Assembly (NCBI GenBank): GCA_038904515.1
Contig: JBCKKA010000002.1
Span: forward strand, 1,215-65,214
DNA: 64,000 nucleotides
Reading direction: 5' to 3'
DNA from: Acidimicrobiia bacterium
GTDB taxonomy: Bacteria > Actinomycetota > Acidimicrobiia > IMCC26256 > PALSA-555
A model generated the notes under the pieces. It worked only from the letters and a program-made list of their open reading frames with translations. It did not search any database and was not told the DNA's origin. Shown here one piece after another: positions 2,756 to 64,000 of the stretch. Each line of letters begins with the position of its first letter. Position 1 is the stretch's first letter. The position numbers were made by a program, and so were the translations under genes.

Positions 2756-2787
2756 GTGGATAGTAACGACAGTTACGCGCGGTCCTC

Positions 2788-11060: not shown

Positions 11061-11086
11061 TGTCGAATTGCGTCCTCGCTCCTGGT

Positions 11087-11103: not shown

Positions 11104-11133
11104 GCCCGCCGCGTAGCAGTCGGTCGCCATCTC

Positions 11134-12177: not shown

Positions 12178-12294
12178 ACGCGTCAGAGGGCTGCTACCCC
12201 GTCCACCCGGCGTTCGAGAGCCCGCGATAAAGACGTCCTGATCCTCGCGGCCGAGTCCGCGGGGCCCGCGCTCACCATCTCTTAGAATCCGCGC

Positions 12295-12816: not shown

Positions 12817-14555
12817 GCACACCAGTAAACGGAACCGATTGCGATGCAGTAATTATCGGCTCCGGTCCGGGTGGTTCTACCGCGGCCCACGTTTTGACCG
12901 CGGCGGGCTGGAATGTCATCGTGCTCGAAAAGGGGCGCAACCATTTACTGCAACTCACGGCTCCTTTCGCGCCGATGGGGCATTTTTCGAACGACGAAAT
13001 TAAATTTTCCCAGCGCCATTTTCTCGGTCCCGATCCCGCACTAGAGCCCCGCACATTTAGGCGGGATGAGGCCGATGGCGATCGGTTTTTAACTGGTCAT
13101 GTAAATAGTTTGCCGTCCACCGTGGGTGGAGGTGGAGTGCACGCCGACGGAAAGTTGCCGCGTTTTCGCGAAGTCGACTTTGCTCTGCGTAGTGAACTCG
13201 GCGGTGTTGATGACGCGGATGTGGTCGACTGGCCAATCAGTTACGCCGATCTCGAACCGTATTACGCCGAGGCCGAACAACTTGTGGGCGTTTCGGGGGA
13301 AGAAACCAATCCGTTTGCGGCTTGGCGGTCGGGTCCTTACCCCATGCCCCCGGGTGCCGACATGTTTGGCGCGTTGCTTTCGAGTGCGGCGGCCGAACGG
13401 CGGGGGCTTCATCCCTATCGTGCTCCTACCGGAGTGAATTCGGTGCCCTACGACAATCGCCCCGCGTGTAATAACTGCGGGTTTTGTGCATTTTATGGTT
13501 GTCCCATAGAAGCCAAGGGCGACCCCGTTGCGTTGCTGCGCCGTGCGTTAAATACTGGTCGAGCCCAAATTATCTCCGAGGCTTACGCGAGCGAAATAAC
13601 TACTGACGCCCGCGGTACGCGCGCGACCGGAGTTCGCTATCTCGATCTCAGTGCACCGATTACCGATTCGGGCGCGCCGCCGGTGCACGAAATTAGAGCG
13701 CACCATGTGGTGTTGGCGGGGGGAGCGTTCGAAACTCCGCGGTTGTTATTAATTAACGAACTGGGCAACTCATCGGGGTTAGTGGGCCAAAACTTAATGT
13801 TTCATTTCCAAACTTTGGCTGTGGGTGGATTCCCCGAACGGTTGTGGGGTGCCAGTCGCGGTCGTTCGGTAACTCACTTGCACGACGATCACATTGTGGG
13901 TGACGACGCGCAGACCGCGGCCGCTCGAGCCGCGGATTTACCGTGGCTTCGCGGTGGAATTGTTGAACACGGTGGCGCGGCCGGCCCGATCTTGGAAGCG
14001 CTTAGTTACGGCGTAAACCCTCACCACGCGGCTTCGATGCGGTCGTCGGCGTTAAGGGAACGGTTATGGGTATTTACGATGTAAGGTGAAGACCTCGCTC
14101 AACCCACTAATCGGATTGATCTCGACCCGTCGGTGCGCGACGCGTGGGGATTTCCCGCCGGGCGCGTTACTTATCGTCCGCACCGTCATGAAACCGCTAC
14201 TTCCGATCATGTCGGGCCAATACTAGAAGAGATTTTGCGCGACGCGGGCGCCGAGTGGACAATAGTTTCAACTTCGCCACCGGTAAATGACAACGATCGT
14301 CATCCCGCCATGGGCCACGCACCCGTGAGTTACCACATCATGGGCACTACTCGCATGGGGAGTTCGCCCGAGTCGTCGGTGGTCGATCCTTCGGGGCGAT
14401 TATGGGACCTCGAAAATGTCATCGTGGCCGACAGCTCAGTCTTTCCGACTTCCACCGGTTACGGCCCCACGCTTTCGTTGGTGGCGCTGGCCGCGCGCGC
14501 CGCTCGGTTAGCGGCCGGAGTTCCGCTAGCACCCACTACTCCCGCGGAAAAATAG
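12813..14555 (+). pseudogene. GMC-family FAD oxidoreductase interrupted by a single in-frame TAA (14082-14084)
   Basis: N-terminal part 12813-14081 has the FAD fold DAVIIGSGPGGSTAA. The same frame continues after the TAA as GEDLAQPTNRIDLDPSVRDAWGFP..., through to the GMC C-terminal motif HIMGTTRMG...VADSSVFPTSTGYGPTL. The track splits it into 12813..14084 and 14133..14555. Confidence 0.8.
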
Positions 14556-14658
14556 GCCCGCAGGCCAAGGGCAGTTGTCATTTGGCGGAGAAGGGGCAAA
14601 AAGTGGCACGATAACGACTTCGTTTGAAACTATCCGTCCCGATTAGGAGATTTCCATC

Positions 14659-15522
14659 ATGCCCATAAACCCCGAAGCCGTAGGAGCAACCAGCGAACCC
14701 GCCGAGGCGAGTTGGTCGTCGAAGGATTCTTTGCTTTACGCGCTCGGTGTGGGTGCGGGCGTTACCGACCCGACCGGGTTTGAATTGCAGTTCACTACCG
14801 AGAACAGTCAAGACATCACTCAGCAAGCCTTGCCCACCATGCCGGTAACCATTAACGCGAGCGGCGGCAAAGGCCCCAACTTGATGGAGATCATCGGCAC
14901 ATTTAATTGGGCGATGTTGGTTCACGGTGAGCAGTCGATAACTATGCACAAGCCGTTGCCGGTTTCGGGCAAGGCGACAATGGTGGGCAAAGTGGCGGCA
15001 ATTTATGACAAAGGTAAAGCGGCCATCGTCGTTTTAGAAAACGAAGCAACCGATTTAGCCGACGGCAAGCCGTTGTTCACCACCAGCATGTCGGCGTTTA
15101 TTCGCGGTGAAGGTGGATGGGGTGGCGATCGCGGCCCGAGCGGTCCGCGCAATGTAGCTCCTGAACGCGAACCCGACCACGCAATTTCGTACGAAACTCG
15201 GGCCGACCAAGCGTTATTGTACCGACTTAACGGCGACCGTAACCCGTTGCACTCCGACCCGAAGTTTGCCGAGTTGGCCGGTTTTCCGAAACCAATTCTT
15301 CACGGACTGTGCACTTACGGTTTCACCGGGCGGGCGTTGTTGCACGCAGTGTGCGAGAGCGATCCCACTCGCTTTGGGCAGATGGAAGGACGTTTCACTA
15401 ACCCAGTAATGCCCGGCGATCGTCTTGATGTGCGTATCTGGATGGAGGGCGACGAAGCCATCTACCAAACTTGGGTGGGCGATAACTTGGTGCTCGATTC
15501 GGGCCGCCTCGTTTACTCGTAA
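14659..15522 (+). CDS. MaoC-type double hot-dog (R)-specific enoyl-CoA hydratase / 3-hydroxyacyl-thioester dehydratase
   Basis: 287 aa with two hot-dog halves. The C-terminal half has the hydratase-2 motif YRLNGDRNPLHSDP...GFPKPILHG. Confidence 0.75.
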   Translation: MPINPEAVGATSEPAEASWSSKDSLLYALGVGAGVTDPTGFELQFTTENSQDITQQALPTMPVTINASGGKGPNLMEIIGTFNWAMLVHGEQSITMHKPLPVSGKATMVGKVAAIYDKGKAAIVVLENEATDLADGKPLFTTSMSAFIRGEGGWGGDRGPSGPRNVAPEREPDHAISYETRADQALLYRLNGDRNPLHSDPKFAELAGFPKPILHGLCTYGFTGRALLHAVCESDPTRFGQMEGRFTNPVMPGDRLDVRIWMEGDEAIYQTWVGDNLVLDSGRLVYS

Positions 15523-16015: not shown

Positions 16016-17314
16016 TTATTCGCCTTTGATCATTTCGCGGGCCGGCGTTCGCAGTCCGTCTCGCACTACTGAACGAACGGATTGTCGCCCGTGAATAATA
16101 ACGATAATTGCTAGCACGAGGTACATGATGCCGACCCCTAATCGTACCCGGCTGGCGAGATCGGAAGGCAAGATCACACCCAAAAGAAACTGGGATACGA
16201 AAAGTCCTAAGAGCCAAACTGCTTCGCGTACGCTCAATTTACGACTGACCAGCACCGCCACCGCAAAAGCCGACTGGGCCGCGGTCAAAAAGAGCTCTTC
16301 GCGCTGGCGCACATCGATCGGCAAGCCCGACACCGCGCCCCCTGCCACTATGAACACCAACGGCAAGAAACCCACGAGTAAAGTCCACTGATTGACTTTT
16401 GATGAAAGCAATACCCCTAGTCCGGCCGATGATTTGAGATGGTAGGCAAATAATCCCGCCACTAACAATTCGGGCGATTCGGTCGCGAGTGGCGCCACCC
16501 ACTGCACGAGAAGAAATGTACTAATCCCCGCAGATTTTCCGGTGGCAATAAGTGATTCGGCGAAAGGTCCGGCGCAGAGATAAATAATAAATCCGGAGTA
16601 GGCGAGCAGCGCGCCAACCGCGACCCGCCGACCGGTCTTAGTTAGGGCGCCGAGCAGTTGAGCGGGGCCTTCTAACTCGGGTTCGCCCGCGGGTGCATTC
16701 CAGATACGCGAGACGTAAAAGCCGTAAAGCCCAATCAAAATCACCGCGTCGTAGATAGTCACATGGTCTTTTAGGGGAAGGCTGAGTGAATACAGCGTGG
16801 CCAGAGCCAGAATCACGATTTCAATCGCTTGCGGTCGAGCGAGGGCGACTTCGGTATCGACCGCGCCGACGTAGTTATTCCGCCGAGCAATTTTTTTCAA
16901 TCGCCACGCACCGATGAAAACCACGAGCGGCCAACCAATACCAATGAGAAGTCGGTTGCTTCCGGTCATGTTGGCCAACGCGAGCGGGGCGTAATCGAGA
17001 TTGCCACCAGCCTTGTAAGCAAAAGTAAAATCGACCGCATATTCGGGTAGCACAGCAATTAAGGCCAGCACGCCAATGGCAAGACCACGCGAAACGTCGA
17101 GCTCAAGGGCCTCGGCGGCCCAGGTGAGCAAAAATGCCGATCCGACTATGCCTACGCCAAAGACGCCTGCGGCCAAAATATTTTCGGGGTGTATTTCGCC
17201 GAGCCGCACAACTAGCGCGGGCCCAGTGAGAGCCGCAGCCGCGAGAATCGCGATTATTTTTCGTGAGCGATATTCGACCGGCATCAGTTTGAGGCTAGCG
17301 GTCGGTCGGTTCAA
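16016..17314 (-). CDS. Ca2+/cation antiporter (CaCA / sodium-calcium exchanger) family membrane protein
   Basis: 432 aa and polytopic. Two alpha-repeat-like motifs, AVLPEYAVD and LATESPELLVAG. Confidence 0.55.
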   Translation of the reverse strand: MNRPTASLKLMPVEYRSRKIIAILAAAALTGPALVVRLGEIHPENILAAGVFGVGIVGSAFLLTWAAEALELDVSRGLAIGVLALIAVLPEYAVDFTFAYKAGGNLDYAPLALANMTGSNRLLIGIGWPLVVFIGAWRLKKIARRNNYVGAVDTEVALARPQAIEIVILALATLYSLSLPLKDHVTIYDAVILIGLYGFYVSRIWNAPAGEPELEGPAQLLGALTKTGRRVAVGALLAYSGFIIYLCAGPFAESLIATGKSAGISTFLLVQWVAPLATESPELLVAGLFAYHLKSSAGLGVLLSSKVNQWTLLVGFLPLVFIVAGGAVSGLPIDVRQREELFLTAAQSAFAVAVLVSRKLSVREAVWLLGLFVSQFLLGVILPSDLASRVRLGVGIMYLVLAIIVIIHGRQSVRSVVRDGLRTPAREMIKGE

Positions 17315-24407: not shown

Positions 24408-26267
24408 TTATGAATCCGGTTGCAGAATCAACGCAAGTTGATCGGTAAGGCGGGGCAACACTTCTCGCCAATCGCCCACGACGCCGATGTCGGCGGCCGC
24501 GAATATCGGCGCGGCGGGGTCGGAATTAATCGCGACTACGGTTCCGGCCTGACCGATTCCAACCGCGTGGTTGAATTTTCCACTGCTGCCGATAGCGATA
24601 AAAAGTCTCGGCGCAATTGACCGACCGGTAATGCCGACTTGGCGCGAGCGGGGCAGCCAACCGGCATCGGTGACTTTACGAGTAGCCGCCAGTGGCGCGT
24701 TCAGTAGCGTGAGCAAAGGGTCGAGCAAAGGGTAATCGTCAGGATCGACGCCCATACCGACGCCGACCACGGTGGTTGCGTCGGCGAGCAAATTGAGATC
24801 GTCATTGCGAGTGCGGGTCAATACCTGCACGCGACTTTCGGGCGCGACGATTTGATTGGTGACGGTCGGCGTGCTGGAGCGGGGGGTCCACGGCCCGAGC
24901 ATTCCGCTGCGCACGGTCGCCATTTGTATTGGCGAGGTGGCAGTGATTGCCGCCACGAGTTGGCCACCGAATGCAGGTTTCCACGCGACTAGACGGCCGT
25001 CGTCAACCTCAAGCATCACTGCATCGCTAGTTAGACCAGCGCCTAGTCGGGCCGCACTGCGACCAGTTATTTCGCGACCCCACGCGGTACTGGGAGCAAG
25101 AATCGCCCACGGGGTAAAAGTTTGCGCCCACTCGGCCACTACGCGCCCGATGTCTTGCTCGACTATTCCAGTGGTGGCGACGGCATTGAGCAGGTGGGTG
25201 GGCGGTTCGGGGTAAGTAAAATTAATAATCGAATCGGCACCGGCGGCTCCTAGATCTGAAGTTCGATCAGTGGTATCGAAGTTAAGGGCAACTACCCAAC
25301 CCGCTAATTCCGAATTCGCTAATTTTTGGGCTAGACCAGCCGCCGCACCCAACAATTCGTGGGTAAGTTCTTGGCGATCGGGCTCTACTAACACACCAAT
25401 AATCGGACCTTGGTCAGAGGCCGCGACCCGATCGGGAACAACTGGCGATAAAGAAGCCGTCGAAGCGTCCGCACGACCGAGGGCGTCGCGTCGCTCCAGC
25501 AATTCAATTATTTGGGCTACTTGTTTGTCGATAGTTCCGACTCCGATGATTTTTTCCCGCGCCACAATGTGAGCACGAATTTCGCCTACTCCCGTAGGGC
25601 TAGCTGCGGCACCCCACGGGCCGGGGCCGAGTTCAGCCGTGCCGATGGTTTCGATCAATTCGGGTGCTACTTGCGCCCCTCTGGTTTCGTCAACTTTGCA
25701 CGGGTCGATAAGTCTTTCGGCGCAAGAAATTAGGGCCGGCATTTCTATTCGTAACTGCGCCCAACCGTCGTCGTGTTCACAACGTAAGTGAAGAGTTGAT
25801 CCCTTTACGCTTAGATAGCGCACTCCGGTGGCAAAAGGGAGATCCATTAGTTCGGCAATCTCGGGCCCCACCTGACCGGTATCGGAGTCAACCGAATTGA
25901 GCCCCGTCAAAATGAGATCGAACGGACCGGATCGAGCGAGCGCGGCGGCGAGCGCGCGCGCGGTCGCGAGAGTGTCGGAGCCAGCAAAAGCGGTTTCGCT
26001 GATCAAAACACCGTTAATGATTACCGCGTTCTGTTCCCCCCAAGCAATGGCTTCTCGCAACACCGCTTCGGCCGCGGGGGGTCCGAGGGTAAATACCGTC
26101 ACCGAACCGTCGCCTACCGCGGCCGCGAGCTCAACTGCCTGAGCCGCGGCTCGACGGCAATACGGATTCATCTCGAGTTCGACGCCGTCCCGTTGTAGTC
26201 GCCCGTCGGCGCCTAACTGCAGTTCGGTGAAAGCCGGTATCTGTTTAACCAGCGCGGCGATGCGCAT
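24408..26267 (-). CDS. fused electron-transfer flavoprotein, EtfB-like N-half and EtfA-like C-half
   Basis: A single 619-codon ORF. The N-half has MRIAALVKQIP...EMNPYCRRAAAQAVEL (EtfB/FixA-like). The C-half ends with TRKVTDAGWLPRSRQVGITGRSIAPRLFIAIGSSGKFNH...VVAINSDPAAPIF...DIGVVGD (the EtfA FAD-binding signature). Confidence 0.8.
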   Translation of the reverse strand: MRIAALVKQIPAFTELQLGADGRLQRDGVELEMNPYCRRAAAQAVELAAAVGDGSVTVFTLGPPAAEAVLREAIAWGEQNAVIINGVLISETAFAGSDTLATARALAAALARSGPFDLILTGLNSVDSDTGQVGPEIAELMDLPFATGVRYLSVKGSTLHLRCEHDDGWAQLRIEMPALISCAERLIDPCKVDETRGAQVAPELIETIGTAELGPGPWGAAASPTGVGEIRAHIVAREKIIGVGTIDKQVAQIIELLERRDALGRADASTASLSPVVPDRVAASDQGPIIGVLVEPDRQELTHELLGAAAGLAQKLANSELAGWVVALNFDTTDRTSDLGAAGADSIINFTYPEPPTHLLNAVATTGIVEQDIGRVVAEWAQTFTPWAILAPSTAWGREITGRSAARLGAGLTSDAVMLEVDDGRLVAWKPAFGGQLVAAITATSPIQMATVRSGMLGPWTPRSSTPTVTNQIVAPESRVQVLTRTRNDDLNLLADATTVVGVGMGVDPDDYPLLDPLLTLLNAPLAATRKVTDAGWLPRSRQVGITGRSIAPRLFIAIGSSGKFNHAVGIGQAGTVVAINSDPAAPIFAAADIGVVGDWREVLPRLTDQLALILQPDS

Positions 26268-54924: not shown

Positions 54925-55102
54925 TTCCGAGTTGTGCTTTTAAAGTCACCAAGAAAAGCTCCGCCTCGAAGCCACTCCATAAGAAGAGCGACATTGTTCG
55001 TCTTCAAGCCTTAACGAATAAAAAATGCGCAGATAGGCTGTCCTAGTAGCCGCCAGTTAAGCGGTGAAAGTCCGCTAAATACGCGCGGAGGCTAGATTAT
55101 AT

Positions 55103-57232
55103 TTATTCGATCTTGATTTTGGGTAGGAGGCGGTCAAGAGTCTTAGGAAACCACCAGTTGCTTTTACCGAGGATCTCCATTACCGCCGGCACCAAAACCA
55201 TGCGCACCAGAGTTGAGTCGAGAGCTACCGCCACCGCCAAGCCCAAGCCAAACATTTTGATTAATGGTGTGGGGTTAAATACGAACGCCAAAAATACCGT
55301 AATCATGATTAGCGCGGCTGAGGTAATCACGCGCGCAGTTTTGGAAACGCCCGCCACTATCGCTGCACGGGTGTCATTTTTCTGATCGTATTCTTCGCGT
55401 ATTCGGGTAAGTAAAAATACTTGGTAGTCCATAGACAGCCCGAACAGCACCGCGAACATCATCATCGGTACAAAAGAAACAATCGGGATAGTGGTTTGTA
55501 ATCCAATGAGATTTATTCCCCATCCCCATTGGAATACGGCCACAGTTATTCCGTAAGCCGCGCCTACTGACAGAAGGTTCATAACCGCCGCGGTAGCGGG
55601 TATGACGATTGATCTGAAGACCATCATCAGCAGTAGGAAACTCAAGAACACTACGGCGAGAATAAAGAACGGTAGGCGGCTCGCTACTCGGTCCCCGATA
55701 TCGATGAAAGTTGCGGTAGCTCCACCGACGTACGCCTTAGCATCGCTGCCTTTAAGCGCGTTGGGGACTACTGAGGACCGTAAATTACGAACCAAGTTGG
55801 TAGTGGCCGCCGAATCGGGTTGAGCAGCCGGTATAACGGTGACAATAGCGGTGTTGTCGGCGGGATTAATACTCCCGCTCTGGGCCGACGGTGGGAACAC
55901 GCCCGCTATGCCGGGCGTATTTTTCAGATCTTGAAGTAGGTTCGGCGGAATCGCGCCGCCGTTGGGGTAAGTGACAACGATCAACAACGGGCCGTTAAAT
56001 CCGTTACCAAAACCTTTAGCGATGGTGTCGAAGGCGATGCGATTAGTAGTACCGGGAGGCTGAGTGCCATCGTCGGGTTGGCCGTAACGAATAGATAAAA
56101 ATGGTACCGCCAAGGTTAGAAGAATAAGTAAAACCGCCACTCCGTAGGGCCACGGATGCCGGGCTACGTGGATGGCCCAATTCTCCCAAAATGTCGGCTT
56201 ACCGTCGGTCACCTTTTCTTGGCGATGGAAAATTTTGGGAACCTTGCCGCGGTCAATACGATCCCCGAGTGCACCCAGCAAAGCGGGAATCAGAGTAAGG
56301 GCCGCGATCATCATAATGAAAACCACAAATGCAGTAGTGAAGCCGAGCATCGAAACGTAAGGAATTCCCGCGATGACGAGCCCAGTGATGGCGATTACGA
56401 CGGTAAGACCGGCAAAGAGCACTGCTTGTCCTGCGGTGCTTACCGCGCGACCGATTGAATCTTCAATCGTCATCCCCGCGGCGCGACATTCGCGATGACG
56501 AGTGACGATAAATAGTGAGTAATCGATTCCAACGCCAAGACCAATCATCATGGCCAACATCGGCGCAACCGACCCCACATCGATAAACGCCGAGAGCACG
56601 GAAATGCTAGTTATTCCAAAAGCAAGACCGAATATCGCAGTAATAATCGGTAGGCCGGCGGCTACGACCGCGCCAAAGGCGAATATCAAAATGACAATCG
56701 AAAGCAGGAGCCCGATTAGATCGGCCGGCGAGTTGGGCGGACTGACGGCGTAGTCAGTGAGTTGACCACCAAAATTCACATTAAGACCGGCGGCTTTGGC
56801 GGGTGCGGTGGCTTTTACTAGTTGGGCATAACCCGATTTTCCTACTTGCGAGATAGATCCGGAATACTGAACGTTAAGAAGTTCAATACTGGGATCGAGC
56901 GGCGAGGGTGTCGGCACGACGCTTGTCACGCGGGGAAGCTTCTCAATGTTGGCTACGGTTTCTTCGATAGCGGTGGCGGCAGTAGGGGAGCTGACCGAGC
57001 CATTAGGCGCAACAACTACCACTGAAGCGCCCACTCCAGACTGGGCGGGAAACCGCTTTACCAGCAGGTCTATTGCCGTTTGCGATTCGGTTCCCGGAAT
57101 CGTGAAAGCATCAAGATAAGCACCACCAACTGAAGTTTTAATAACTGCTAGGAGGATTACGGCCAGAATCCATACCGCGATCACCGCACGGTGATGTCGA
57201 GCGGCTCCGCGCCCAACGCGTTCCAGAAGCAT
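55103..57232 (-). CDS. MMPL-family (RND superfamily) membrane transporter
   Basis: 709 aa from ATG 57232 (MLLERVGRGAARHHRAVIAVW...). Two 6-TM bundles with periplasmic loops. Contains GVGIDYSLFIVTRHRE and GLSMDYQVFLLTRIREE motifs. The track ORF to 57577 is a spurious extension. Confidence 0.85.
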   Translation of the reverse strand: MLLERVGRGAARHHRAVIAVWILAVILLAVIKTSVGGAYLDAFTIPGTESQTAIDLLVKRFPAQSGVGASVVVVAPNGSVSSPTAATAIEETVANIEKLPRVTSVVPTPSPLDPSIELLNVQYSGSISQVGKSGYAQLVKATAPAKAAGLNVNFGGQLTDYAVSPPNSPADLIGLLLSIVILIFAFGAVVAAGLPIITAIFGLAFGITSISVLSAFIDVGSVAPMLAMMIGLGVGIDYSLFIVTRHRECRAAGMTIEDSIGRAVSTAGQAVLFAGLTVVIAITGLVIAGIPYVSMLGFTTAFVVFIMMIAALTLIPALLGALGDRIDRGKVPKIFHRQEKVTDGKPTFWENWAIHVARHPWPYGVAVLLILLTLAVPFLSIRYGQPDDGTQPPGTTNRIAFDTIAKGFGNGFNGPLLIVVTYPNGGAIPPNLLQDLKNTPGIAGVFPPSAQSGSINPADNTAIVTVIPAAQPDSAATTNLVRNLRSSVVPNALKGSDAKAYVGGATATFIDIGDRVASRLPFFILAVVFLSFLLLMMVFRSIVIPATAAVMNLLSVGAAYGITVAVFQWGWGINLIGLQTTIPIVSFVPMMMFAVLFGLSMDYQVFLLTRIREEYDQKNDTRAAIVAGVSKTARVITSAALIMITVFLAFVFNPTPLIKMFGLGLAVAVALDSTLVRMVLVPAVMEILGKSNWWFPKTLDRLLPKIKIE

Positions 57233-57263
57233 TCGCTTTAAACTACTCCAATATCGGCGGCGA

Positions 57264-58028
57264 TTGTGCAACCATGAGGATGTGGAAAGCCCGCCGTGGT
57301 CTCTAGTCGATTGCCCGCCCGACGCTCGACGAGTGGTGCGAAACCGAAAAGTTCGGCTCGGCGATGTCGGGTCATCGGGATATTTACGCCTCGATGCGCT
57401 CGCGCGGTATTTACAAGATGTGGCTGCTGATGATGTCGACGAAGCGGGTATTGAGGGAGCTTGGGTATTGCGGCGTACGGCGGTTGTGGTCAAAGCGAGC
57501 CCAAAATTTTCTGACGAAGTCGAAATGGCGACCTTTTGTTCGGGAACGGGGTCGCGTGTGGCCGAACGACGAACCACCCTTAGTGTGGCGGGTATTCCAT
57601 TTATCGAGGCGGTTGGGCTTTGGGTGTTTATTGACCGTGACGGTCGCCCCGCAGAACTAGAGAATCGGTTCTTTGATGTTTACGGAGTCAGTGCGCAAGA
57701 ACGCAAAGTGCGAGGACGACTGCGATTACCCCGCCCCTCGTCTGAGCTGGTGGCCCGCCCTTGGATAACGCGGGCCAGCGATTTCGATGTGCTGGGTCAT
57801 ATGAATAACGCGCTGGCCTGGGTGATGATCAAAGATGCCCAACACCGCATGGTCCCGAAGGCCCAGATCGCCAGTGCTTTGCTTGAATATCGTGTACCAA
57901 TAGATCCCACTACCGAAATCGGAGTGGTTAGTGAACTAAACGATGACCATCTCGCGGTATGGATTACCGGTGGCTCAGAGACTTTCGTTGCTGCTCGGCT
58001 CGACCTCAATTCGCCGGCGCAGGGCTAG
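57264..58028 (+). CDS. acyl-ACP thioesterase family (double hot-dog) protein
   Basis: YLRLDALARYLQDVAADD...AWVLRRTAVVV...WVFIDRDGRP pattern. The start (TTG 57264 or GTG 57282) is uncertain. Confidence 0.6.
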   Translation: MCNHEDVESPPWSLVDCPPDARRVVRNRKVRLGDVGSSGYLRLDALARYLQDVAADDVDEAGIEGAWVLRRTAVVVKASPKFSDEVEMATFCSGTGSRVAERRTTLSVAGIPFIEAVGLWVFIDRDGRPAELENRFFDVYGVSAQERKVRGRLRLPRPSSELVARPWITRASDFDVLGHMNNALAWVMIKDAQHRMVPKAQIASALLEYRVPIDPTTEIGVVSELNDDHLAVWITGGSETFVAARLDLNSPAQG

Positions 58029-58055
58029 GGCCGCGTCCCGATAGCGTTAACGCGA

Positions 58056-58868
58056 ATGACTAACGACAGCCCTACTCCTAAAAATGCGCTCAGTTCCAAC
58101 CAGTCGCCTGATAATTCTTTAAGCGCGGTGGGATCATTGAGCATCGTGGTGCCGATGTGGAATGAAGAAGAAAGTTTTCATCCGTGCACTTCCGCGATGC
58201 TCGCCGAACTCACTGTCCTTGCAAATAGTGGGCTTATAACTCAGGGTCAGTTAGTAATAGTTGACGACGCTTCTACCGATTCCACTCCGAGTCTTTGCGA
58301 CGCGTTAGCGACAAGCGATAGTCGTGTGCATGTAGTTCATCATCCCGAGAACACCGGTCTGGGCGGGGCAGTGCGATCGGGAATACTGGCCGCCGATGGC
58401 GATCGAGTTCTTTACACTGATGCCGACCTGCCCTTCGATCTAAATGAGATCGGTCGCTTAGTAAGGCTGGCCGCGGCCTACGAGGCGGGAATAGTTTCGG
58501 CGTATCGCTTTGAGCGCAAGGCTGAAGGATTTAGACGCATGATCTATTCGTCTATCTACAACGGGTTAGTTCGCGTCATGTTAGGAATAAGAGTGCGCGA
58601 TGTTAACTTCGCCTGTAAGTTGATTAGCAGAAATGTTTTGCGCGATATCACAATTAAAAGTGAAGGGTCGTTTATCGACGCGGAGATTTTAGCCCGAGCC
58701 GAACGCAGTGGATACGGAATTATTCAAGTCGGACTCGATTTTTTTCCTCGCACAGTCGGGCTTTCCACTCTTTCTTCTCTGCGCACAATTAGAAAAATTT
58801 TACGAGAGATGTTCGGTCAATTTCGAGAAATTCGTCGCATTAAGCCAGTGACTACTAATAAAAAATGA
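58056..58868 (+). CDS. GT2 glycosyltransferase of the polyprenyl-phosphate sugar synthase type (DPM1/ArnC/PpgS-like)
   Basis: SIVVPMWNEE, VIVDDASTDST, the YTDADLP (DxD) motif, and FACKLISR. No C-terminal TM bundle. Confidence 0.75.
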   Translation: MTNDSPTPKNALSSNQSPDNSLSAVGSLSIVVPMWNEEESFHPCTSAMLAELTVLANSGLITQGQLVIVDDASTDSTPSLCDALATSDSRVHVVHHPENTGLGGAVRSGILAADGDRVLYTDADLPFDLNEIGRLVRLAAAYEAGIVSAYRFERKAEGFRRMIYSSIYNGLVRVMLGIRVRDVNFACKLISRNVLRDITIKSEGSFIDAEILARAERSGYGIIQVGLDFFPRTVGLSTLSSLRTIRKILREMFGQFREIRRIKPVTTNKK

Positions 58869-59719
58869 TAACGGCCAAGCGATTGCTAGTCGTCAATGCC
58901 GACGACTTTGGCTTAACCGAAGGTACCAACCGGGCAATTATTCGCACTATCAACTCCGGTGTAGTTACGAGTACATCGGTCTTGCCTAACGGCGCCGCCT
59001 TTTTGACGGGCGTGCGCGAGTTGCGAAATATTGCGGTGGGAATTGGTGTGCACTTGACTATGGTCGGTAGCGGTGCTCCGATTTTGAGTGCAACCGAGAT
59101 CCCGTCGTTAGTTGACAAGCACGGCAAGTTTGCCAAGGCGTGGCCGACCGTGACCCGCCGAGCGGCGTTACGGCTCATTAATCCCGACGACTTGCGTCGA
59201 GAGTTCGCGGCTCAGATTGCGTTATTGCGCGACTCGGGTCTAGCTCTGACTCATCTTGATACTCATCAAAATGTTCATCTTTGGCCCACGATCGGAAAAG
59301 TGGTTACCGATCTGGCCGTGGCTGAAAACATCGATTTCGTCCGGATTCCCCGAACTCGAAGAATTACCCCACTTTCACTCGGAGTTGACTATCTGTCGAA
59401 GCGGTTAGCGCGCCGCCTGGTGCGAGCAGGAAGAACACTTACCGATATTTCGGCTGGTTTCGATGAAGCAGGTGCTCTCGAAATCGACTGTCTTAAAAAA
59501 GTCATCGGTCGGTTGGGCAATTCGTCGGCTCAACAAGCAGACATCGTTTGTCACCCCGGTGAGGCCGACGATCCCGATCTCGGCGCTTACTCGTGGGGAT
59601 TTCGTTGGGCCGAAGAGACTGCCGCGCTAACCACACCGACTATCAGGCAGCAAATTGTCAACGCGGGGTTCACTCTGGGCACCTACCGTGATCTGGTGGG
59701 GACGGTAAGCAGATCGTGA
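58865..59719 (+). CDS. YdjC/ChbG/HpnK-family carbohydrate deacetylase
   Basis: LLVVNADDFGLTEGTNRAII...SVLPNG...GVHLT...LTHLDTHQNVH. 4-nt overlap with the GT2 gene. Confidence 0.8.
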   Translation: MITAKRLLVVNADDFGLTEGTNRAIIRTINSGVVTSTSVLPNGAAFLTGVRELRNIAVGIGVHLTMVGSGAPILSATEIPSLVDKHGKFAKAWPTVTRRAALRLINPDDLRREFAAQIALLRDSGLALTHLDTHQNVHLWPTIGKVVTDLAVAENIDFVRIPRTRRITPLSLGVDYLSKRLARRLVRAGRTLTDISAGFDEAGALEIDCLKKVIGRLGNSSAQQADIVCHPGEADDPDLGAYSWGFRWAEETAALTTPTIRQQIVNAGFTLGTYRDLVGTVSRS

Positions 59720-60930
59720 CGACTTCAGTAGCCGAGCGTCCGGAACGCGTCGATCGCGTTGTCGTCGGTCGTGCCGCGCTGGCTTACTTGGCAATCGCTC
59801 TGGTATTAACCGCGCTAACGGTATTGGCTAATTCATATTCGGGTGGCGATGCCGGTTTAAAAAGCATTATCGACCGTTTAGGGCTGGCGGGAGGCTGGTG
59901 CCGTTTCGATTGCGGATGGTATGTCGGTATTGCCGAGCAAGGTTATTTTTATAACCTCGGCTATCAATCGAGTGTGGCGTTTTTCCCTGGTTATCCCATG
60001 GCGGCTCGTGGGCTCGGAAATATTATTGGCGATATTCCGCTAGCGGTAATCATCACGAGTTGGCTATCGGGATTTGGTGCTGCTATCGCTTACGCGGCTT
60101 GGTGCACGGGGCGACTTGACCGACGGGTAGCAACATGGTCGGTAGCGGTTTTATTGCTCTATCCCTACGGGTTTTATTTGTTCGGTGCGGGTTACGGCGA
60201 CGGTTTATTTCTCGCATTAGCGGTTAGCGCATTTTTATTACTCGAGCGGGATCACTTATTCCTCGCGGCGACTGCGGGCGCTTTAGCCGGCGCCACTCGT
60301 TCTATCGGAATTGTAATTTTCGTAAGCATGGTTTTAGTGATAATCGACCGACGGGGTGGTATGCCCATGCGTGCGCCCGATTCGGGTTGGTTGGCCAAAC
60401 TTGGCCTGCCCGCGTCGGTGTCGTTGAAAGTCTTACGCGGGCGTGATGCGATTTTGTTTATTGCTTTGCTCGGTCCTATTGGCTGGTCATTATTTCTAAA
60501 TAATAGATTTGGTGACGGGTTTGCTTATGTAACCGTGCAAGAAGCATGGAAGCAAAAAGAGGGTCCCCGGACTTGGCTGAAGTTTGATTTATTCCGCGAG
60601 ATTGCCAATGGGCAGGATATTTATTACGTAGGCGGCCGGCTTATTCCGGCTGTGCTGCTAGTCGTGCTGTTGGCCCTACTGCCGCTGGTAGCCAAAAAAT
60701 TAGGACCCAGTTACGCGGCGTACAGCGCCGCGGCGGTTCTGTTGCCTGCATTGGGTAGTAAAGATTTTCATAGCATGGGTCGTTACGCTATCGCCGCGTT
60801 TCCGATATTCGCCGTCGTCGGCATCGAGCTGTCAGCCCGCCCCCGCTGGGGCCGATTGGTTTTAGTGCTGGGCGCGATATTCTTATGTGCCGGAGCCTTC
60901 GGATTTGCGCGAGGTTGGTACTTGGCGTGA
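59716..60930 (+). CDS. polytopic membrane protein, GT-C / PIG-V-like mannosyltransferase-type
   Basis: 404 aa, at least 9 TM helices. First-loop motif RFDCGWYVGIAEQGY...VAFFPGYPM, as in PIG-V-like GT-C proteins. 4-nt overlap with the deacetylase gene. Confidence 0.55.
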   Translation: MTTSVAERPERVDRVVVGRAALAYLAIALVLTALTVLANSYSGGDAGLKSIIDRLGLAGGWCRFDCGWYVGIAEQGYFYNLGYQSSVAFFPGYPMAARGLGNIIGDIPLAVIITSWLSGFGAAIAYAAWCTGRLDRRVATWSVAVLLLYPYGFYLFGAGYGDGLFLALAVSAFLLLERDHLFLAATAGALAGATRSIGIVIFVSMVLVIIDRRGGMPMRAPDSGWLAKLGLPASVSLKVLRGRDAILFIALLGPIGWSLFLNNRFGDGFAYVTVQEAWKQKEGPRTWLKFDLFREIANGQDIYYVGGRLIPAVLLVVLLALLPLVAKKLGPSYAAYSAAAVLLPALGSKDFHSMGRYAIAAFPIFAVVGIELSARPRWGRLVLVLGAIFLCAGAFGFARGWYLA

Positions 60931-60959
60931 CCGGATACTGTTACTAATTGTCTGACATC

Positions 60960-60987
60960 AAATAATGGGAGCGAAATAACGGGAGCG
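60960..60987. repeat. 14-bp tandem duplication carrying the Shine-Dalgarno (AAATAAYGGGAGCG x2)
   Basis: AAATAATGGGAGCG at 60960-60973 and AAATAACGGGAGCG at 60974-60987. The ATG is at 60992. Confidence 0.85.
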
Positions 60988-60991
60988 GCAA

Positions 60992-61786
60992 ATGAGTGAA
61001 ATCAGTGAGCTGGACGCGCCGCCGGTAGCCCGCGACTTTTCGGGTCGCGCGGCAATGATAACGGGAGCGGGATCCGGTTTAGGTCAAGCCGCGGCGATGC
61101 TTTTGGCGAATCGAGGGGCAAATGTTTTGGTCGCCGACATCAACGCAGTAGGCGGGCAAGCCACGGTCGACCTTTGTCGCGCGGCGGGTGTTGATGCCTT
61201 CTTTATGCCGACCGATGTCACTCAAGAAGCCGATGTGGCCGCGGCCGTCGTGGCGGTGGTTGATCGTTGGGGAAGCCTTGACCTCGCGATTAATAATGCT
61301 GGCACCACGGGTCCGTCGAAGCCCACCGCGGAGTACACCCTCAAAGAGTGGAACCAGGTAGTGGCGCTTAATCTCACTTCAGTATTTATTGGTCTCAAAC
61401 ACCAAATCCCACCGATGGTTGCCCAAGGACGGGGCGCGATCGTTAACACTTCGTCCGGTGCCGGCTTAATGGGTTTCGCGGGGCTGCCGGCTTATGTTGC
61501 TACTAAACATGCGGTACTAGGTATCACTAAAGCCGCCGCGCTCGAATACATAAAAGCCGGTGTGCGCATAAACGCAGTGTGCCCTGGGAGCACCCGCACG
61601 CCGATGCTCGAAAGTTGGATGGGCGGCAATCCCGCTATCGAAGCGGCCATGGCTAACTCGGCTCCGATTGGTCGGTTGGCCGCTCCGGTGGAAATCGCCG
61701 AAGCAATGGTCTGGTTACTTTCCGACGCCGCTTCGTTCATGGTCGGTCACGCATTAGCCGTCGATGGCGGCGCGGTAATTATGTAA
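60992..61786 (+). CDS. SDR-family oxidoreductase (FabG-like)
   Basis: MITGAGSGLGQAAA, NNAG, YVATK and PGSTRTPM. Confidence 0.8.
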   Translation: MSEISELDAPPVARDFSGRAAMITGAGSGLGQAAAMLLANRGANVLVADINAVGGQATVDLCRAAGVDAFFMPTDVTQEADVAAAVVAVVDRWGSLDLAINNAGTTGPSKPTAEYTLKEWNQVVALNLTSVFIGLKHQIPPMVAQGRGAIVNTSSGAGLMGFAGLPAYVATKHAVLGITKAAALEYIKAGVRINAVCPGSTRTPMLESWMGGNPAIEAAMANSAPIGRLAAPVEIAEAMVWLLSDAASFMVGHALAVDGGAVIM

Positions 61787-61818
61787 CTTGCGCGCCACTG
61801 CGGTTAGTGTTTTGCTTT

Positions 61819-62337
61819 ATGGCGATTTATGCATTGGGCAAGTTTGAGCCAAAAATCCATCCGGATGCGTTCGTTCATCCCGACGCGACTGTGATCGGCA
61901 ATGTTGAGATTGGTTCTGAGTCGAGTATCTGGCCTCAAGCAGTGCTGCGAGGTGACATTGGTAAAATTATTATCGGCGCCCGTACCTCGATCCAAGACGG
62001 TTCGGTTATTCACTGCACCGCGGCCCATCCCACCATTGTCGGCAACGAATGCGTGGTGGGCCACCTCGCCCACCTTGAGAGTTGCACCATAGAAGATCTG
62101 GCTTTAGTTGGGACTGGTTCGATCGTGCTCCACCGTTCTATTGTGCGTACCGGCGCGTTGGTCGGTGCCGGCGCGGTAGTTCCTAACGATATGGAAGTTC
62201 CGAGCGGCGCGATGGCGTTGGGCGTGCCGGCCAAGATTCGCCCTGATTCGGTCGTCGACGGAGTAATTGCCATGATGGCGGCCGCCTACGTCGAAAACGG
62301 TAAACGATTTCTAGCGGAGTTGCGCCGCCTCGGCTGA
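61819..62337 (+). CDS. gamma-class carbonic anhydrase / hexapeptide-repeat (YrdA/PaaY-like) protein
   Basis: MAIYALGKFEPKIHPDAFVHPDATVIGNVEIG...LRGD...H-containing left-handed beta-helix repeats. Confidence 0.8.
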   Translation: MAIYALGKFEPKIHPDAFVHPDATVIGNVEIGSESSIWPQAVLRGDIGKIIIGARTSIQDGSVIHCTAAHPTIVGNECVVGHLAHLESCTIEDLALVGTGSIVLHRSIVRTGALVGAGAVVPNDMEVPSGAMALGVPAKIRPDSVVDGVIAMMAAAYVENGKRFLAELRRLG

Positions 62338-62582
62338 GACTTAAGTGACTTCGGGCCCGAGTTCGCGTCGGTATTTGTCGGGCTCGATAAAAATTACACA
62401 GGTACTAGTAACCGGGGCTCGGATGCTCACTTCCTCGAGCTCGGTCAGCAGCCCTCGCGGGTTTGCAGTGATCCGCTAGAGTCAAGCAACACCCGCTATC
62501 GACGCGGTCACGCAATAGCCCGAGCCCTTACAAGACCCGAGGCAGGTCATTCGGGGCTACAGCAAGAAGGAGATCGAGAAAA

Positions 62583-64000
62583 ATGCAGCCGTCTCGGCTT
62601 GTGGTGCTTGCCGCTGGGGTTGGTTCGCGCCTCGAGTCCAAGGTGGGTGCGAAACCTTTGGTGCGGGTCGGGGGTATAACACTCCTGGAACGGTCAATCG
62701 TCGCGGCGCACGAGGCCGGCTTCGACGACGTCGTCGTCGTCACGGGCCACGAACACGAACGTGTCGCCCGGGAGGCCTTCGACGTGAGCCGTCGCCGAGG
62801 GCTGCGCGTTGCCGTCGTCCATAACGCGCGCTATCGGGAGGGCAACGGACTCTCCGTCCTCGTCGCGAAGGACGTCGTCGGCGACGCACCGTTCGCGCTG
62901 GTGATGGCCGATCACGTCTTCACGTCGGCACTGCTGCGCCGACTCCGGGCGACGTCGGTGCGACCGGGCGAGGTCGTCGTCGCCGTGGACCGCTCGCTCG
63001 GACGGGCCGCCGGTGTCGACCCGGCCGACGCGATGAAGGTTCTACTCACCGGCGACCGCGTCGACGCCATCGGCAAGATGCTGCCCACCTACGACGCGTT
63101 CGACGTGGGCGCCTTCGTCTGTAGCACGGCGGTGTTCGACGCGGTCGAAGAAGCCGCGGCATGCGGCGACACCGCGTTCGCGGGTGCCGTGCAAGTGCTC
63201 GCCAGCCTCGGCACGGCACGCGCGCTGCCTCTCAAGGACGACGAATGGTGGTTTGATGTCGACACTCCGACCGACTGTCGCCGCGGCAGCCGGTTTCTGT
63301 TCCGAAGTACCGGTAAGGCGCTCGACGGCGCCGTGGCGACGCGCTTGAACCGAGCGGTTTCGCAGCGTTTCGTGACCCCGGTGCTGCTCGGCGTCTTCCC
63401 CTCGATCACCCCGAACCAGGTCACGATTGTCGCGTTCGCCGTAGCGTTCGCCGCCGCGGCGGCCCTGGCCGCCCACGCCCCGCTGGTAGCCGCGGTCCTC
63501 ATCATGGCGGCAAGCGTGCTCGACGGCAGCGACGGCGAGATCGCCCGCCTCGCGCACCGCTCGTCGCGCTTCGGCGCGTTCTTCGACGCGGTCCTCGACC
63601 GGGCTGCGGACGGTCTACTCTTTATCGGCGCGGCCATCTACCTCGCGACCTCGGGTGACCTCGCCGGCCCTCTTGGGTCGGCCCAGGTGCCGGTCGTGAT
63701 AGCCGTCGCCGGCCTGGCACTTGTCGGGCACCTGCTCGTCAGCTACACCACGGCCAAGGCCGCCGTCGACCTGGGCCACAGGTACCACGGCACCATCCTC
63801 GCGGGTGGCCGCGGGCGCGACCTGCGACTGCTGATCCTGACGCTCGGCGCCTTGGGCGCGGCAGTGGATGCCAACTCGCTGCTGGCCGCGCTCGCCGTCG
63901 TGGCTGTCCTGTGCGCGGGGATCGTGAGCGTGCGGCTGCGGGCGTCCTGGTGGGCGGACGGACCCGGCGCGCACTACATGGGGGTGCGTGCCGTGGCGTT
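62583..64000 (+). CDS. bifunctional nucleotidyltransferase / CDP-alcohol phosphatidyltransferase (IPCT/DIPPS-like), 3' end outside window; NOT in the supplied ORF track
   Basis: My own translation from ATG 62583 (SD AAGAAGGAG at 62564-62572) has no stop up to 64000. LVVLAAGVGSRL...GNGLSV...WWFDVDTPTD, then TM helices and DGSDGEIARLAHRSSRFGAFFDAVLDRAAD (the D-G-x2-A-R-x8-G-x3-D-x3-D motif). G/C at third positions is 34 of 40 hand-counted codons. Confidence 0.8.
   Translation, partial: MQPSRLVVLAAGVGSRLESKVGAKPLVRVGGITLLERSIVAAHEAGFDDVVVVTGHEHERVAREAFDVSRRRGLRVAVVHNARYREGNGLSVLVAKDVVGDAPFALVMADHVFTSALLRRLRATSVRPGEVVVAVDRSLGRAAGVDPADAMKVLLTGDRVDAIGKMLPTYDAFDVGAFVCSTAVFDAVEEAAACGDTAFAGAVQVLASLGTARALPLKDDEWWFDVDTPTDCRRGSRFLFRSTGKALDGAVATRLNRAVSQRFVTPVLLGVFPSITPNQVTIVAFAVAFAAAAALAAHAPLVAAVLIMAASVLDGSDGEIARLAHRSSRFGAFFDAVLDRAADGLLFIGAAIYLATSGDLAGPLGSAQVPVVIAVAGLALVGHLLVSYTTAKAAVDLGHRYHGTILAGGRGRDLRLLILTLGALGAAVDANSLLAALAVVAVLCAGIVSVRLRASWWADGPGAHYMGVRAVA

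Follow-up and report, generated by a model that had tools for sequence, protein, structure and literature searches.

An Acidimicrobiia genome carries, on a horizontally acquired island, the gene for a three-domain IPCT/DIPPS-like protein with a fused HAD phosphatase domain

Introduction

How did a gene resembling those for a solute of hyperthermophiles come to lie in a genome of the Acidimicrobiia, and what might its product do there? The question is raised by the right-hand end of a 64,000-nt stretch of contig JBCKKA010000002.1 (assembly GCA_038904515.1), the whole of which is called the window here. [quoted passage not shown] Its composition had been ascribed either to horizontal acquisition or to a chimeric contig join. 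Most reports of the heat-protective solute di-myo-inositol phosphate (DIP) to date concern (hyper)thermophiles, and DIP is seen as a hallmark of high-temperature life. To our knowledge, the final dephosphorylation of the DIP pathway still lacks a dedicated gene.

Results and discussion

The reading frame and its leader

The plus-strand frame is open from the ATG at 62583 to base 64000 (1,418 nt, 472 codons), as had been described, and follows a Shine-Dalgarno sequence and, further upstream, an in-frame stop at 62469 (Table 1). All listed ORFs of the region (62528-62743, 62694-62915, 63042-63557, 63089-63637 and 63615-63974) indeed lie on the minus strand; the plus-strand frame is missing from the list because frames running off a source end are left out of it, and the listed ORFs are shadow frames of the kind usually seen in coding DNA rich in GC. 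The complete protein, P0001, has 767 residues, so that 295 codons lie past the window edge and lead into a HAD phosphatase domain. The contig that bears P0001 measures 69,739 bp, a length also given for the contig of the window's HflX (P0273). An early frameshift, which would have spoken against the gene, did not appear upon extension, and the 767-codon frame is intact.

A hand count of 34 G/C third positions in 40 codons had suggested an unusually high GC3. The computed value for the frame is 0.845 (GC 0.70), compared with 0.47-0.60 in the six genes upstream. GC3 alone is no proof of foreign origin, since it varies elsewhere in the window: housekeeping genes between 1 and 7 kb have values of 0.72-0.80, and 11134-12177 has 0.91.

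Homology of the 5' leader to other copies of the gene begins at 62427-62454 for four of them (L001, L002, L006 and L029) and at 62536-62541 for the remaining copies. An Rfam search of the conserved leader matched no riboswitch or other known RNA, and no sigma-70-like promoter was found in it. The small hairpin next to the Shine-Dalgarno sequence showed no covariation in RNAalifold across 10 copies (6 pairs, 0 compensatory changes).

Table 1 Features at the right-hand end of the window, with window positions
Feature	Position	Strand	Basis or remark
Left junction, CTTAAG	62340..62345	.	Junction sequences compared
Left 1.65 kb of the inserted island (total roughly 3.13 kb)	62346..64000	+	Continues about 1.47 kb past the window, to about 65475 equivalent
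Left end of the insert, 81 bp, GC 0.54	62346..62426	.	Missing from the empty site and from every high-GC copy
5' leader, transferred together with the gene	62427..62582	+	Homology with other copies; last ~50 nt kept in all
Small conserved hairpin, CCCGAG/TTCGGG stem	62536..62555	+	11 nt 5' of the Shine-Dalgarno sequence
Shine-Dalgarno sequence, AAGGAG	62567..62572	+	10-nt spacer to ATG 62583; kept in aligned copies
Truncated gene, codons 1-472 of 767 (protein P0001)	62583..64000	+	472 residues 100% identical to full-length P0001
Cytidylyltransferase domain of IPCT-like type, residues 1 to about 245	62583..63317	+	Pfam, PDB matches, Foldseek
Juxtamembrane helix and CDP-alcohol phosphotransferase domain of six helices, residues about 246-465	63318..63977	+	PF01066, alignments, AF2 helices
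Catalytic signature D314xxD317G318xxA321R322...G331xxxD335xxxD339	63522..63599	+	No variation among 30 family members
R412-D-L-R415, which aligns with RxxR, the acceptor-site motif in DIPP/PIP synthases	63816..63827	+	Alignment
Short linker into the HAD phosphatase domain	63978..64000	+	P0001 sequence; motif I DFDGT (aa 474-478) just beyond the window edge

Boundaries and content of the island

The abrupt shift in GC at 62.35-62.6 kb, together with the 89-93% identity of the gene to copies in high-GC genomes, is what a chimeric join of a ~54% GC and a ~70% GC genome near 62.3-62.6 kb would produce. Two further assemblies of the same species refute such a join. In one of them (L028, GCA_038904525.1), which is occupied, the insert spans 9764-12892 and host DNA resumes on its far side after 3.1 kb, with GC passing from 0.55 to 0.70 and back to 0.55 along the contig; the left junction is identical and identity to the window is 97.8% over 9 kb (203 mismatches). 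The third assembly (L030) is empty. Window positions 55819-62345 align to it at 96.9%, the alignment ends at 62345, and both flanks of the island are joined directly at 94-97% identity, forming an intact empty site; tblastn of this contig recovered no homologue of the fusion gene. Moreover, 24 GC-to-AT changes are common to both host-genome copies of the gene and are seen in none of the high-GC copies. With 2% sequence divergence between the two occupied assemblies, one mis-assembly shared by both is implausible, and the chance that the contig is chimeric is practically nil.

The insert consists of two convergent genes only, the fusion gene and a histidine phosphatase (His_Phos_1) gene just outside the window, and carries no integrase or transposase of its own, no tRNA target and no clear target-site duplication. 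The empty site reads ...GATTTAAG followed directly by CTTTCC...; at the right-hand junction, the insert closes with ...CATTTAG before CTTTCC. The junction repeat TTAAG/TTTAG may reflect microhomology or a duplication of 5 bp that is imperfect; a search of the island ends for longer terminal direct or inverted repeats and for att-like sites returned only GC-rich noise and this imperfect 5-bp repeat. The histidine phosphatase gene is usually transferred along with the fusion gene. It encodes a second phosphatase for which the mechanism proposed below does not account, and which counts against that model.

Horizontal transfer and selection

Horizontal acquisition of the island by the Acidimicrobiia genome (~54% GC), probably from soil bacteria of high GC content, is supported by the empty site, by the other assembly in which the insert is present, and by amelioration biased towards AT. 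Of the two origins considered in the preliminary description, acquisition is therefore the one that stands. The presence/absence polymorphism is accompanied by foreign composition (GC 0.70, compared with 0.54 in the host) and by copies in unrelated contexts: the two-gene block occurs at 89-95% nucleotide identity in at least 10 other loci, in high-GC MAGs labelled Actinomycetota and Chloroflexota, and the 6-kb flanks of these loci show no synteny, even by tblastx. A more distant copy (L110, about 67% protein identity) lies between direct IS copies, and this copy alone is flanked by transposases. Among plasmids, a search of PLSDB yielded no three-domain homologue.

Host-lineage substitutions in the gene run predominantly from GC to AT (24/30, 15/17 and 27/29). 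Such strong AT-biased drift could also be read as decay, with the island as a passenger that has no function in this host, and the L028 allele has in fact diverged faster in its membrane-domain half (93-95% compared with 98-99%), while a conspecific genome does without the island altogether. This seems very unlikely, however, as the 767-codon frame is whole in both host genomes, every catalytic residue is kept, and codon differences are synonymous in 32 cases and non-synonymous in 19. The gene is under purifying selection.

Domain architecture

Both domains named in the preliminary description were recovered above Pfam gathering scores, NTP_transf_3 (PF12804) at aa 7-137 (E 2.7e-17) and CDP-OH_P_transf (PF01066) at aa 276-403 (E 2e-12). 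The first domain contains the motif LAAGVGSRL...K24 (62607-62654, plus strand) and combines GxGxR...K with the Rossmann-like fold of IPCT-type nucleotidyltransferases; its motifs are invariant across the P0001 family. The closest PDB sequence matches of this domain are the IPCTs of Archaeoglobus fulgidus (2xme, E 1.4e-21) and Thermotoga maritima (4jd0, E 3.9e-14), and a Foldseek search with P0001 likewise placed 4mnd, A. fulgidus IPCT 2xme (TM about 0.8) and T. maritima IPCT at the top. JGI COG-based naming labels the domain 'choline kinase'.

In the AF2 model the second domain comprises six TM helices and a juxtamembrane helix; the packing between domains was left unused, its geometry being unreliable (pTM 0.47). 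The domain was aligned to 4mnd, 4o6m and PIP synthases. Its CDP-alcohol signature, of which the preliminary description had quoted a string beginning at D2 and leaving out D1, is complete and reads D314-G-S-D317-G318-E-I-A321-R322...G331-A-F-F-D335-A-V-L-D339. The RDLR of P0001 aligns with RDER of A. fulgidus DIPPS (AfDIPPS), RDFR of AF2299, RPER of MtPIPS (R155) and RSER of RsPIPS, and GRGRDxR is kept in all three-domain clusters. This position would correspond to the acceptor site for a phosphorylated inositol, mapped here on the RxxR motif. In the enzyme studied in PMC4634129, arginines R153 (within RxxR) and R191 bind the phosphate of inositol phosphate, and the six-TM class of CDP-alcohol phosphotransferases takes soluble acceptors (PMC4634129).

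The third domain, which about 10 residues connect to the last helix at its cytoplasmic end, is a small, soluble, phosphoglycolate-phosphatase-like HAD domain of about 220 residues, after which an unconserved C-terminal tail follows. Pfam scores at aa 468-645 are 36.2 bits for Hydrolase (PF00702, gathering 26.4) and 33.4 bits for HAD_2 (PF13419, gathering 23.8), and the best fold match in Foldseek is the HAD hydrolase 4eek. The motifs D474-F-D-G-T, C572-S-S-T, K605 and G627-D-x-x-R-D632 are all invariant, so that the domain is catalytically complete by motif. None of the NCBIfam models reached its equivalog cut-off with this domain.

Family placement

The nearest characterised relative is the IPCT/DIPPS of Archaeoglobus, with about 28-30% identity; residues 5-443 of P0001 align colinearly with 42-442 of 4mnd_A (E 7e-44). 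Among NCBIfam models the one for IPCT/DIPPS (NF041135; EC 2.7.7.74 / 2.7.8.34) is by far the best, at 223 bits compared with 73 for the runner-up, and P0001 stays below its equivalog cut-off of 580 bits, the model having been built for Thermococcales. Given this score and this identity, DIP as the product can only be inferred. The models for PIP synthase and archaetidylinositol-phosphate synthase (NF045883 and NF040950) gave 61 bits against a cut-off of 170 and 73 against 180. For the CDP-alcohol domain taken alone, AF2299, a protein of unknown function, matches as well as AfDIPPS.

The IPCT/DIPPS identity proposed in the preliminary description thus holds for the domain order and for the nearest characterised relatives. 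It does not hold as a bifunctional enzyme of about 430-450 aa, as P0001 has 767 aa and three domains. The three-domain proteins make up one clade (16 leaves) when 117 representatives are placed in a crude neighbour-joining tree. P0001 belongs to a distinct environmental clade that combines an IPCT-like, a DIPPS-like and a HAD phosphatase domain. Fifteen family members, with identities as low as 40%, keep the catalytic motifs of all three, and in 30 closer ones these motifs are invariant. All members come from uncultured organisms, and all clusters are metagenomic.

Proposed chemistry

The explanation favoured here, to which as a whole we assign a probability of about one half, is that of an acquired island carrying a three-domain enzyme that makes a soluble inositol phosphodiester. 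The N-terminal cytoplasmic cytidylyltransferase would convert L-myo-inositol-1-phosphate and CTP to CDP-inositol. The six-helix domain would then pass the inositol-phosphoryl group on to another polyol that is itself phosphorylated, most likely inositol-1-phosphate, which would give DIPP, and the tethered HAD phosphatase would strip the terminal phosphate from this phosphodiester. The end product would be di-myo-inositol phosphate or a close analogue, for instance glycerophosphoinositol. A fused phosphatase fits a product that bears a terminal phosphate. The same logic, in which the synthase of a phosphorylated intermediate is joined to a HAD phosphatase completing the solute, is found in fusions of compatible-solute pathways: in TPS-TPP, in the MPGS/MPGP fusion MgsD and in SPS with its SPP-like domain; these fusions differ in having other synthase folds and in transferring glycosyl groups, whereas P0001 would form a phosphodiester.

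A neighbouring gene for inositol-1-phosphate synthase (MIPS) or a phosphatase had been expected to support DIP synthesis. Counting against the model, a MIPS gene lay beside no copy examined (six distinct contexts with Pfam-annotated neighbours) and was absent from the 30 window ORFs scanned, and the flanks of bi-domain relatives in Chloroflexota held neither MIPS nor HAD genes.

Among known systems, IPCT/DIPPS of A. fulgidus (4MND; 2XME) and IPCT of T. maritima (4JD0) are alike in domain order and colinear over the first ~445 residues, and the eight signature residues and the RxxR motif of the A. fulgidus enzyme are all found in P0001. In contrast to that enzyme, P0001 adds the C-terminal HAD domain, sits on a mobile two-gene block and comes from mesophile-type soil and groundwater MAGs instead of marine hyperthermophiles. 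The PIP synthases (M. tuberculosis PgsA1 and Renibacterium PIPS) and archaetidylinositol-phosphate synthase share the fold, the signature and the RxxR acceptor site for inositol phosphate, yet they use lipid CDP donors, lack a cytidylyltransferase domain and match P0001 weakly. Closest in genomic setting is an IPCT/DIPPS island of hadal Thaumarchaeota (PMC7265257), where the fused gene also lies on a small acquired island of a non-thermophile with a phosphatase alongside; there, the phosphatase is a separate gene of the IMPase family, the host is an archaeon and the protein belongs to another clade (PMC7265257).

Alternatively, CDP-inositol could be used for inositol phospholipids in a Kennedy-like route, with phosphoinositol moved to diacylglycerol, an ether lipid or ceramide and the HAD domain acting on a lipid phosphate, for example to turn phosphatidate into diacylglycerol. 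In Rhodothermus marinus (Jorge, Borges & Santos 2015, summarised in PMC4587543), the step from CDP-inositol to lipids is established, and IPCT is likewise paired with a CDP-alcohol phosphotransferase that uses CDP-inositol (IPCT/BEPIS). The same three protein families, NTP transferase, CDP-alcohol phosphatidyltransferase along with HAD hydrolase, form a cluster in Bacteroides or Prevotella species that make inositol sphingolipids, in the 'alternative inositol lipid cluster' of Bacteroides vulgatus/Prevotella (Heaver et al. 2022, PMC9246714); for B. vulgatus, CDP-inositol was proposed as the intermediate and the lipid end products are proposed but unconfirmed. A fusion of the phosphotransferase with HAD is known in P. 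veroralis (PMC9246714), and the catalytic domain of P0001 is itself membrane-embedded. However, no phosphatase is required where phosphoinositol passes directly onto a lipid alcohol, the HAD domain belongs to the small, soluble type, and the combination of six helices with an RxxR motif is linked to a phosphorylated soluble acceptor. The MIPS operon typical of both lipid systems is also missing from the contexts examined. Compared by description, the Bacteroides genes are separate and lie beside MIPS, while P0001 is one polypeptide; Rhodothermus BEPIS, also compared by description, acts on dialkylether glycerol and belongs to a MIPS operon, and no phosphatase domain has been reported for it (PMC4587543). 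A soluble phosphodiester is preferred, with a lipid product as a serious though less likely rival.

The same chemistry might also act on other alcohols, such as glycerol phosphate, phosphocholine, phosphoglycerate or a sugar phosphate, and lead to a different phosphodiester solute or to an envelope-polymer precursor. The low identity to IPCT would allow this, as would the COG-based name and the equally good match of the membrane domain to AF2299; related nucleotidyltransferases with new substrates are still emerging, such as the phosphoglycerate cytidylyltransferase CpgD (PMC12275187). On the other hand, the two solved IPCTs lead the sequence and fold matches of the N-terminal domain by many orders of magnitude (1e-21 and 4e-14 compared with 1e-6 for MurU), and the best full-length model is that of IPCT/DIPPS. 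In addition, the gene of one distant member is translationally coupled to a GFO_IDH_MocA oxidoreductase gene, with TPP-enzyme and AP_endonuc_2 genes nearby, which is a weak hint at inositol because these families include inositol-catabolic enzymes. Substrates other than inositol phosphate are unlikely on this evidence.

Returning to the inositol phosphodiester, a more specific version can be put forward tentatively. One polypeptide would carry every step that leads from inositol-1-phosphate to DIP or to a similar inositol phosphodiester solute, the DIPP phosphatase included, and its gene would travel on a ~3-kb cassette mobile among mesophilic Actinomycetota and Chloroflexota of soil and groundwater.

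Conclusion

New to this locus are the third (HAD) domain of the gene, the recognition that the GC jump is a real insert, and the recurrence of the two-gene block in non-syntenic contexts. The locus also serves as a worked example of how an island can be told apart from a chimeric contig without reads, by means of another assembly that carries the insert, one that lacks it, and amelioration towards the host. A three-domain enzyme ending in a phosphatase is a direct candidate for the dephosphorylation step of DIP synthesis, and might find use in making protein stabilisers of the DIP type with one gene. Judging from its domains and motifs, the whole DIP pathway may be present in one protein of non-thermophile soil bacteria. 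The abundance of the gene in soil and groundwater metagenomes and its recent spread between unrelated genomes suggest a selectable benefit, perhaps tolerance of desiccation, osmotic stress or freezing, and such a benefit would move with a single gene. If one protein does hold the whole pathway and its gene circulates in this way, solutes regarded as typical of hyperthermophiles would count among the stress traits that bacteria of ordinary soils can pass on.

Reading frame and domain architecture

An uninterrupted plus-strand frame of 1,418 nt (472 codons without a stop) begins at ATG 62583 and reaches the window's final base. It is preceded by an in-frame stop at 62469 and by the Shine-Dalgarno sequence AAGGAG at 62567-62572, and both the frame and its ribosome-binding site thus match the preliminary description. 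As the ORF lister omits frames that run off an end, the listing held only five ORFs over this gene, all on the minus strand; they are shadow frames such as GC-rich coding DNA usually gives. The GC3 of the open frame was computed as 0.845 versus 0.47-0.60 in the six preceding genes, which bears out the excess over its neighbours noticed previously. A six-pair hairpin (62536-62555), 11 nt 5' of the Shine-Dalgarno sequence, is kept in 10 of 10 aligned copies without covariation among them and without an Rfam match.

The 3' part of the gene was recovered by protein search: the product has 767 residues, is 100% identical across the 472 residues of the window, and carries a third domain beyond it, with HAD motif I (DFDGT) starting two codons past the edge. 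It is encoded on a contig of 69,739 bp, a length also recorded for the contig that carries the window's HflX. Pfam profiles found both the nucleotidyltransferase and the CDP-alcohol phosphatidyltransferase domain that had been claimed, the latter with all eight signature residues (D314, D317, G318, A321, R322, G331, D335 and D339). A juxtamembrane helix and six transmembrane (TM) helices are predicted for the membrane domain, and the RxxR motif of AfDIPPS, AF2299 and PIP synthases lines up with its R412-D-L-R415. Clarke et al. described a conserved arginine pair, R153 (inside RxxR) and R191, that binds the phosphate of inositol phosphate, and assigned soluble acceptors to the six-TM class (PMC4634129). 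Because the number of helices is even and the N-domain is cytoplasmic, the HAD domain, tethered to TM6 by about 10 residues, is placed on the cytoplasmic side. The final ~80 residues are unconserved in a 15-member alignment, have pLDDT below 30 and overlap the adjoining gene on the opposite strand; this tail is probably the result of read-through where stops are scarce.

Coordinates of domains, junctions and associated genes (L028, second occupied assembly of the same species; L110 and L112, loci with more distant copies).
Feature	Position	Details
NTP_transf_3	aa 7-137	Pfam, over gathering score
CDP-OH_P_transf	aa 276-403	Pfam, over gathering score
HAD-superfamily hydrolase	aa 468-645	Pfam Hydrolase, 36.2 bits (gathering score 26.4)
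HAD_2	aa 468-645	Pfam, 33.4 bits (gathering score 23.8)
Left junction	window 62346 (first insert base)	...CTTAAG/TGACTTC...
Right junction		...CATTTAG/CTTTCC...
His_Phos_1 gene	L028 12092-12790; equivalent about 64674-65372, past window end	minus strand
Housekeeping block	window 1-7000	radical-SAM MiaB-like, MiaA, HflX, aminotransferase, DapD-like, LexA
L110 IS copies	5097-6789 and 13795-15488	direct; DDE_Tnp_1_4 transposase
L112 features	10118-11101, 11460-13127, 16226-17062	

Three-domain family

More than 120 homologues with at least 64% identity, nearly all of 600-800 aa, share the three domains. In an exhaustive search of cluster representatives the architecture occupied about ten clusters at 50% identity, beneath which lay hundreds of two-domain proteins of ~440 aa (30-46% identity), and the three-domain representatives formed a single 16-leaf clade in a crude neighbour-joining tree of 117 leaves. 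The cytidylyltransferase GxGxR...K, the phosphotransferase signature, GRGRDxR and HAD motifs I-IV were kept throughout the 15 aligned members, whose identity reached down to 40%. [quoted passage not shown]

Insertion into host DNA

Horizontal acquisition or a chimeric contig join had been offered as explanations for the GC jump. The second occupied assembly, L028 (GCA_038904525.1), aligns ungapped with window 54932-64000 at 97.8% identity, and shares the six upstream genes; its GC climbs at the gene, from about 0.55 to about 0.70, and falls back to about 0.55 some 2.8 kb on. An empty-site contig of 312 kb (L030) was retrieved when metagenomes were scanned with the hexapeptide-repeat protein encoded upstream; in it this protein is 99% identical to that of the window, both flanks abut directly and no homologue of the fusion gene is present. 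Its alignment with the window spans 55819-62345 and ends there, so that the insert of about 3.13 kb starts at the next base. A chimeric join is refuted, since L028 shares the junction and regains host GC and the flanks are contiguous in L030; the GC jump is a true insertion.

Composition alone would be insufficient to settle foreign origin, as native genes of the window are heterogeneous, with a GC3 of 0.72-0.80 in the housekeeping block versus 0.50-0.60 elsewhere. Host-lineage substitutions, scored against near-unanimous high-GC copies, were GC>AT in 24 of 30 cases shared by both host alleles, 15 of 17 specific to the window and 27 of 29 specific to L028, a bias that is amelioration toward host composition. 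Together, the empty site, L028 and this amelioration demonstrate horizontal acquisition. The host itself falls in Acidimicrobiia by its HflX. Comparison of its two alleles gives 32 synonymous and 19 non-synonymous codon differences, with the full frame retained in each. The alleles are 98-99% identical in the first half of the gene and its flanks and 93-95% identical in the membrane-domain half (window 63301-64000, L028 10719-11418), L028 being the more derived allele with nearly all its changes GC>AT.

No terminal repeats longer than those at the junctions were found at the insert ends. Terminal segments of 81 bp (window 62346-62426) and 129 bp (L028 12764-12892) have a host-like GC of 0.54-0.55 and are absent from the empty site and from every other copy, which reflects either a low-GC intermediate donor or loss of the island with some spacer by L030.

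A mobile two-gene block

Two genes make up the core of high GC (L028 9845-12763): the fusion and a convergent histidine phosphatase (Pfam His_Phos_1, E 4e-52; no NCBIfam cut-off reached), the 3' end of which overlaps the fusion ORF on the opposite strand over its final ~70 codons. This core, or its gene, recurs in ten loci at 89-95% nucleotide identity on contigs with GC of 0.66-0.71, labelled by depositors as Acidimicrobiia, Actinomycetota, Chloroflexia and Limnocylindria, although mis-binning may be involved. Among nine of these loci, no synteny was detected in the 6-kb flanks on either side, even by tblastx. The phosphatase gene travels with the fusion to about 64% protein identity; in the four Chloroflexota-labelled copies it is cut off, leaving only the part that overlaps the fusion ORF. 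At L110, two direct IS copies of 1.69 kb (99.8% identical) bracket a ~7-kb segment that contains both genes along with a further transposase and an MTTB fragment; the arrangement resembles a composite transposon. Integrase fragments lie close to two other copies, and no copy was found in PLSDB plasmids. The island is a mobile two-gene block.

Other genes of the window

The most extreme GC3 of the window (0.91) belongs to 11134-12177 (+), directly after a class II ribonucleotide reductase gene; it encodes a 347-aa multi-pass membrane protein without Pfam match and may be a second foreign gene. A 619-aa protein (24408-26267, -) with two ETF domains and ETF_alpha is apparently a fused EtfB-EtfA, surrounded at about 26-54 kb by a dense set of acyl-CoA dehydrogenases (at least seven), thiolases and CoA-transferases. 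Three genes at 58056-60930 (+), with overlaps of 4 nt each, encode a GT2 glycosyltransferase, a YdjC-family deacetylase and a multi-pass membrane protein of 404 aa (no Pfam match); they form an apparent envelope glycoconjugate operon that adjoins an MMPL transporter.

Proposed function

Among characterised proteins the A. fulgidus IPCT/DIPPS (4mnd) comes closest, with about 28-30% identity and a colinear match over aa 5-443 (E 7e-44). For the N-domain the solved IPCTs 2xme and 4jd0 follow, other nucleotidyltransferases being worse by many orders of magnitude, and the best NCBIfam model is NF041135 (IPCT/DIPPS) with 223 bits, well below a cut-off of 580 that is tuned to Thermococcales. The IPCT/DIPPS-like reading of the preliminary description thus pointed to the right neighbourhood, but the protein is not bifunctional, as it has the third, HAD domain. 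The simplest interpretation is an assembly line of three steps on one protein, with a proposed product: inositol-1-phosphate and CTP would yield CDP-inositol, which would react with inositol-1-phosphate (or another polyol phosphate) to a phosphorylated diester; dephosphorylation of this by the HAD domain would then give DIP or an analogue. Synthase-phosphatase fusions exist in other solute pathways and provide a parallel. Another is the IPCT/DIPPS and IMPase island in hadal Thaumarchaeota (PMC7265257).

The main rival is that CDP-inositol serves inositol-lipid synthesis. The same three protein families cluster in Bacteroides/Prevotella species, and in P. veroralis the phosphotransferase is fused to HAD (Heaver et al., PMC9246714); the Rhodothermus IPCT/BEPIS system makes ether lipids from CDP-inositol (PMC4587543). 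A phosphorylated soluble acceptor is favoured by the fusion to a phosphatase, by membership of the six-TM class and by RxxR, although the enzyme may still serve lipid synthesis. A neighbouring inositol-1-phosphate synthase gene, previously suggested as support for DIP synthesis, was found neither beside fusion copies in any context examined nor among the window ORFs scanned, which weakens the assembly-line reading; the enzyme would need the inositol-phosphate pool of its host. At L112, the gene of a three-domain member with 41% identity shows translational coupling to a GFO_IDH_MocA oxidoreductase gene, and close by are genes for a TPP enzyme, an AP_endonuc_2 protein and an rve integrase. Some inositol-catabolic enzymes belong to the GFO_IDH_MocA, TPP-enzyme and AP_endonuc_2 families, so that the neighbourhood hints only weakly at a link to inositol. 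The description that suits the fusion protein best is a new three-domain variant, in which IPCT-like, DIPPS-like and HAD domains are combined.
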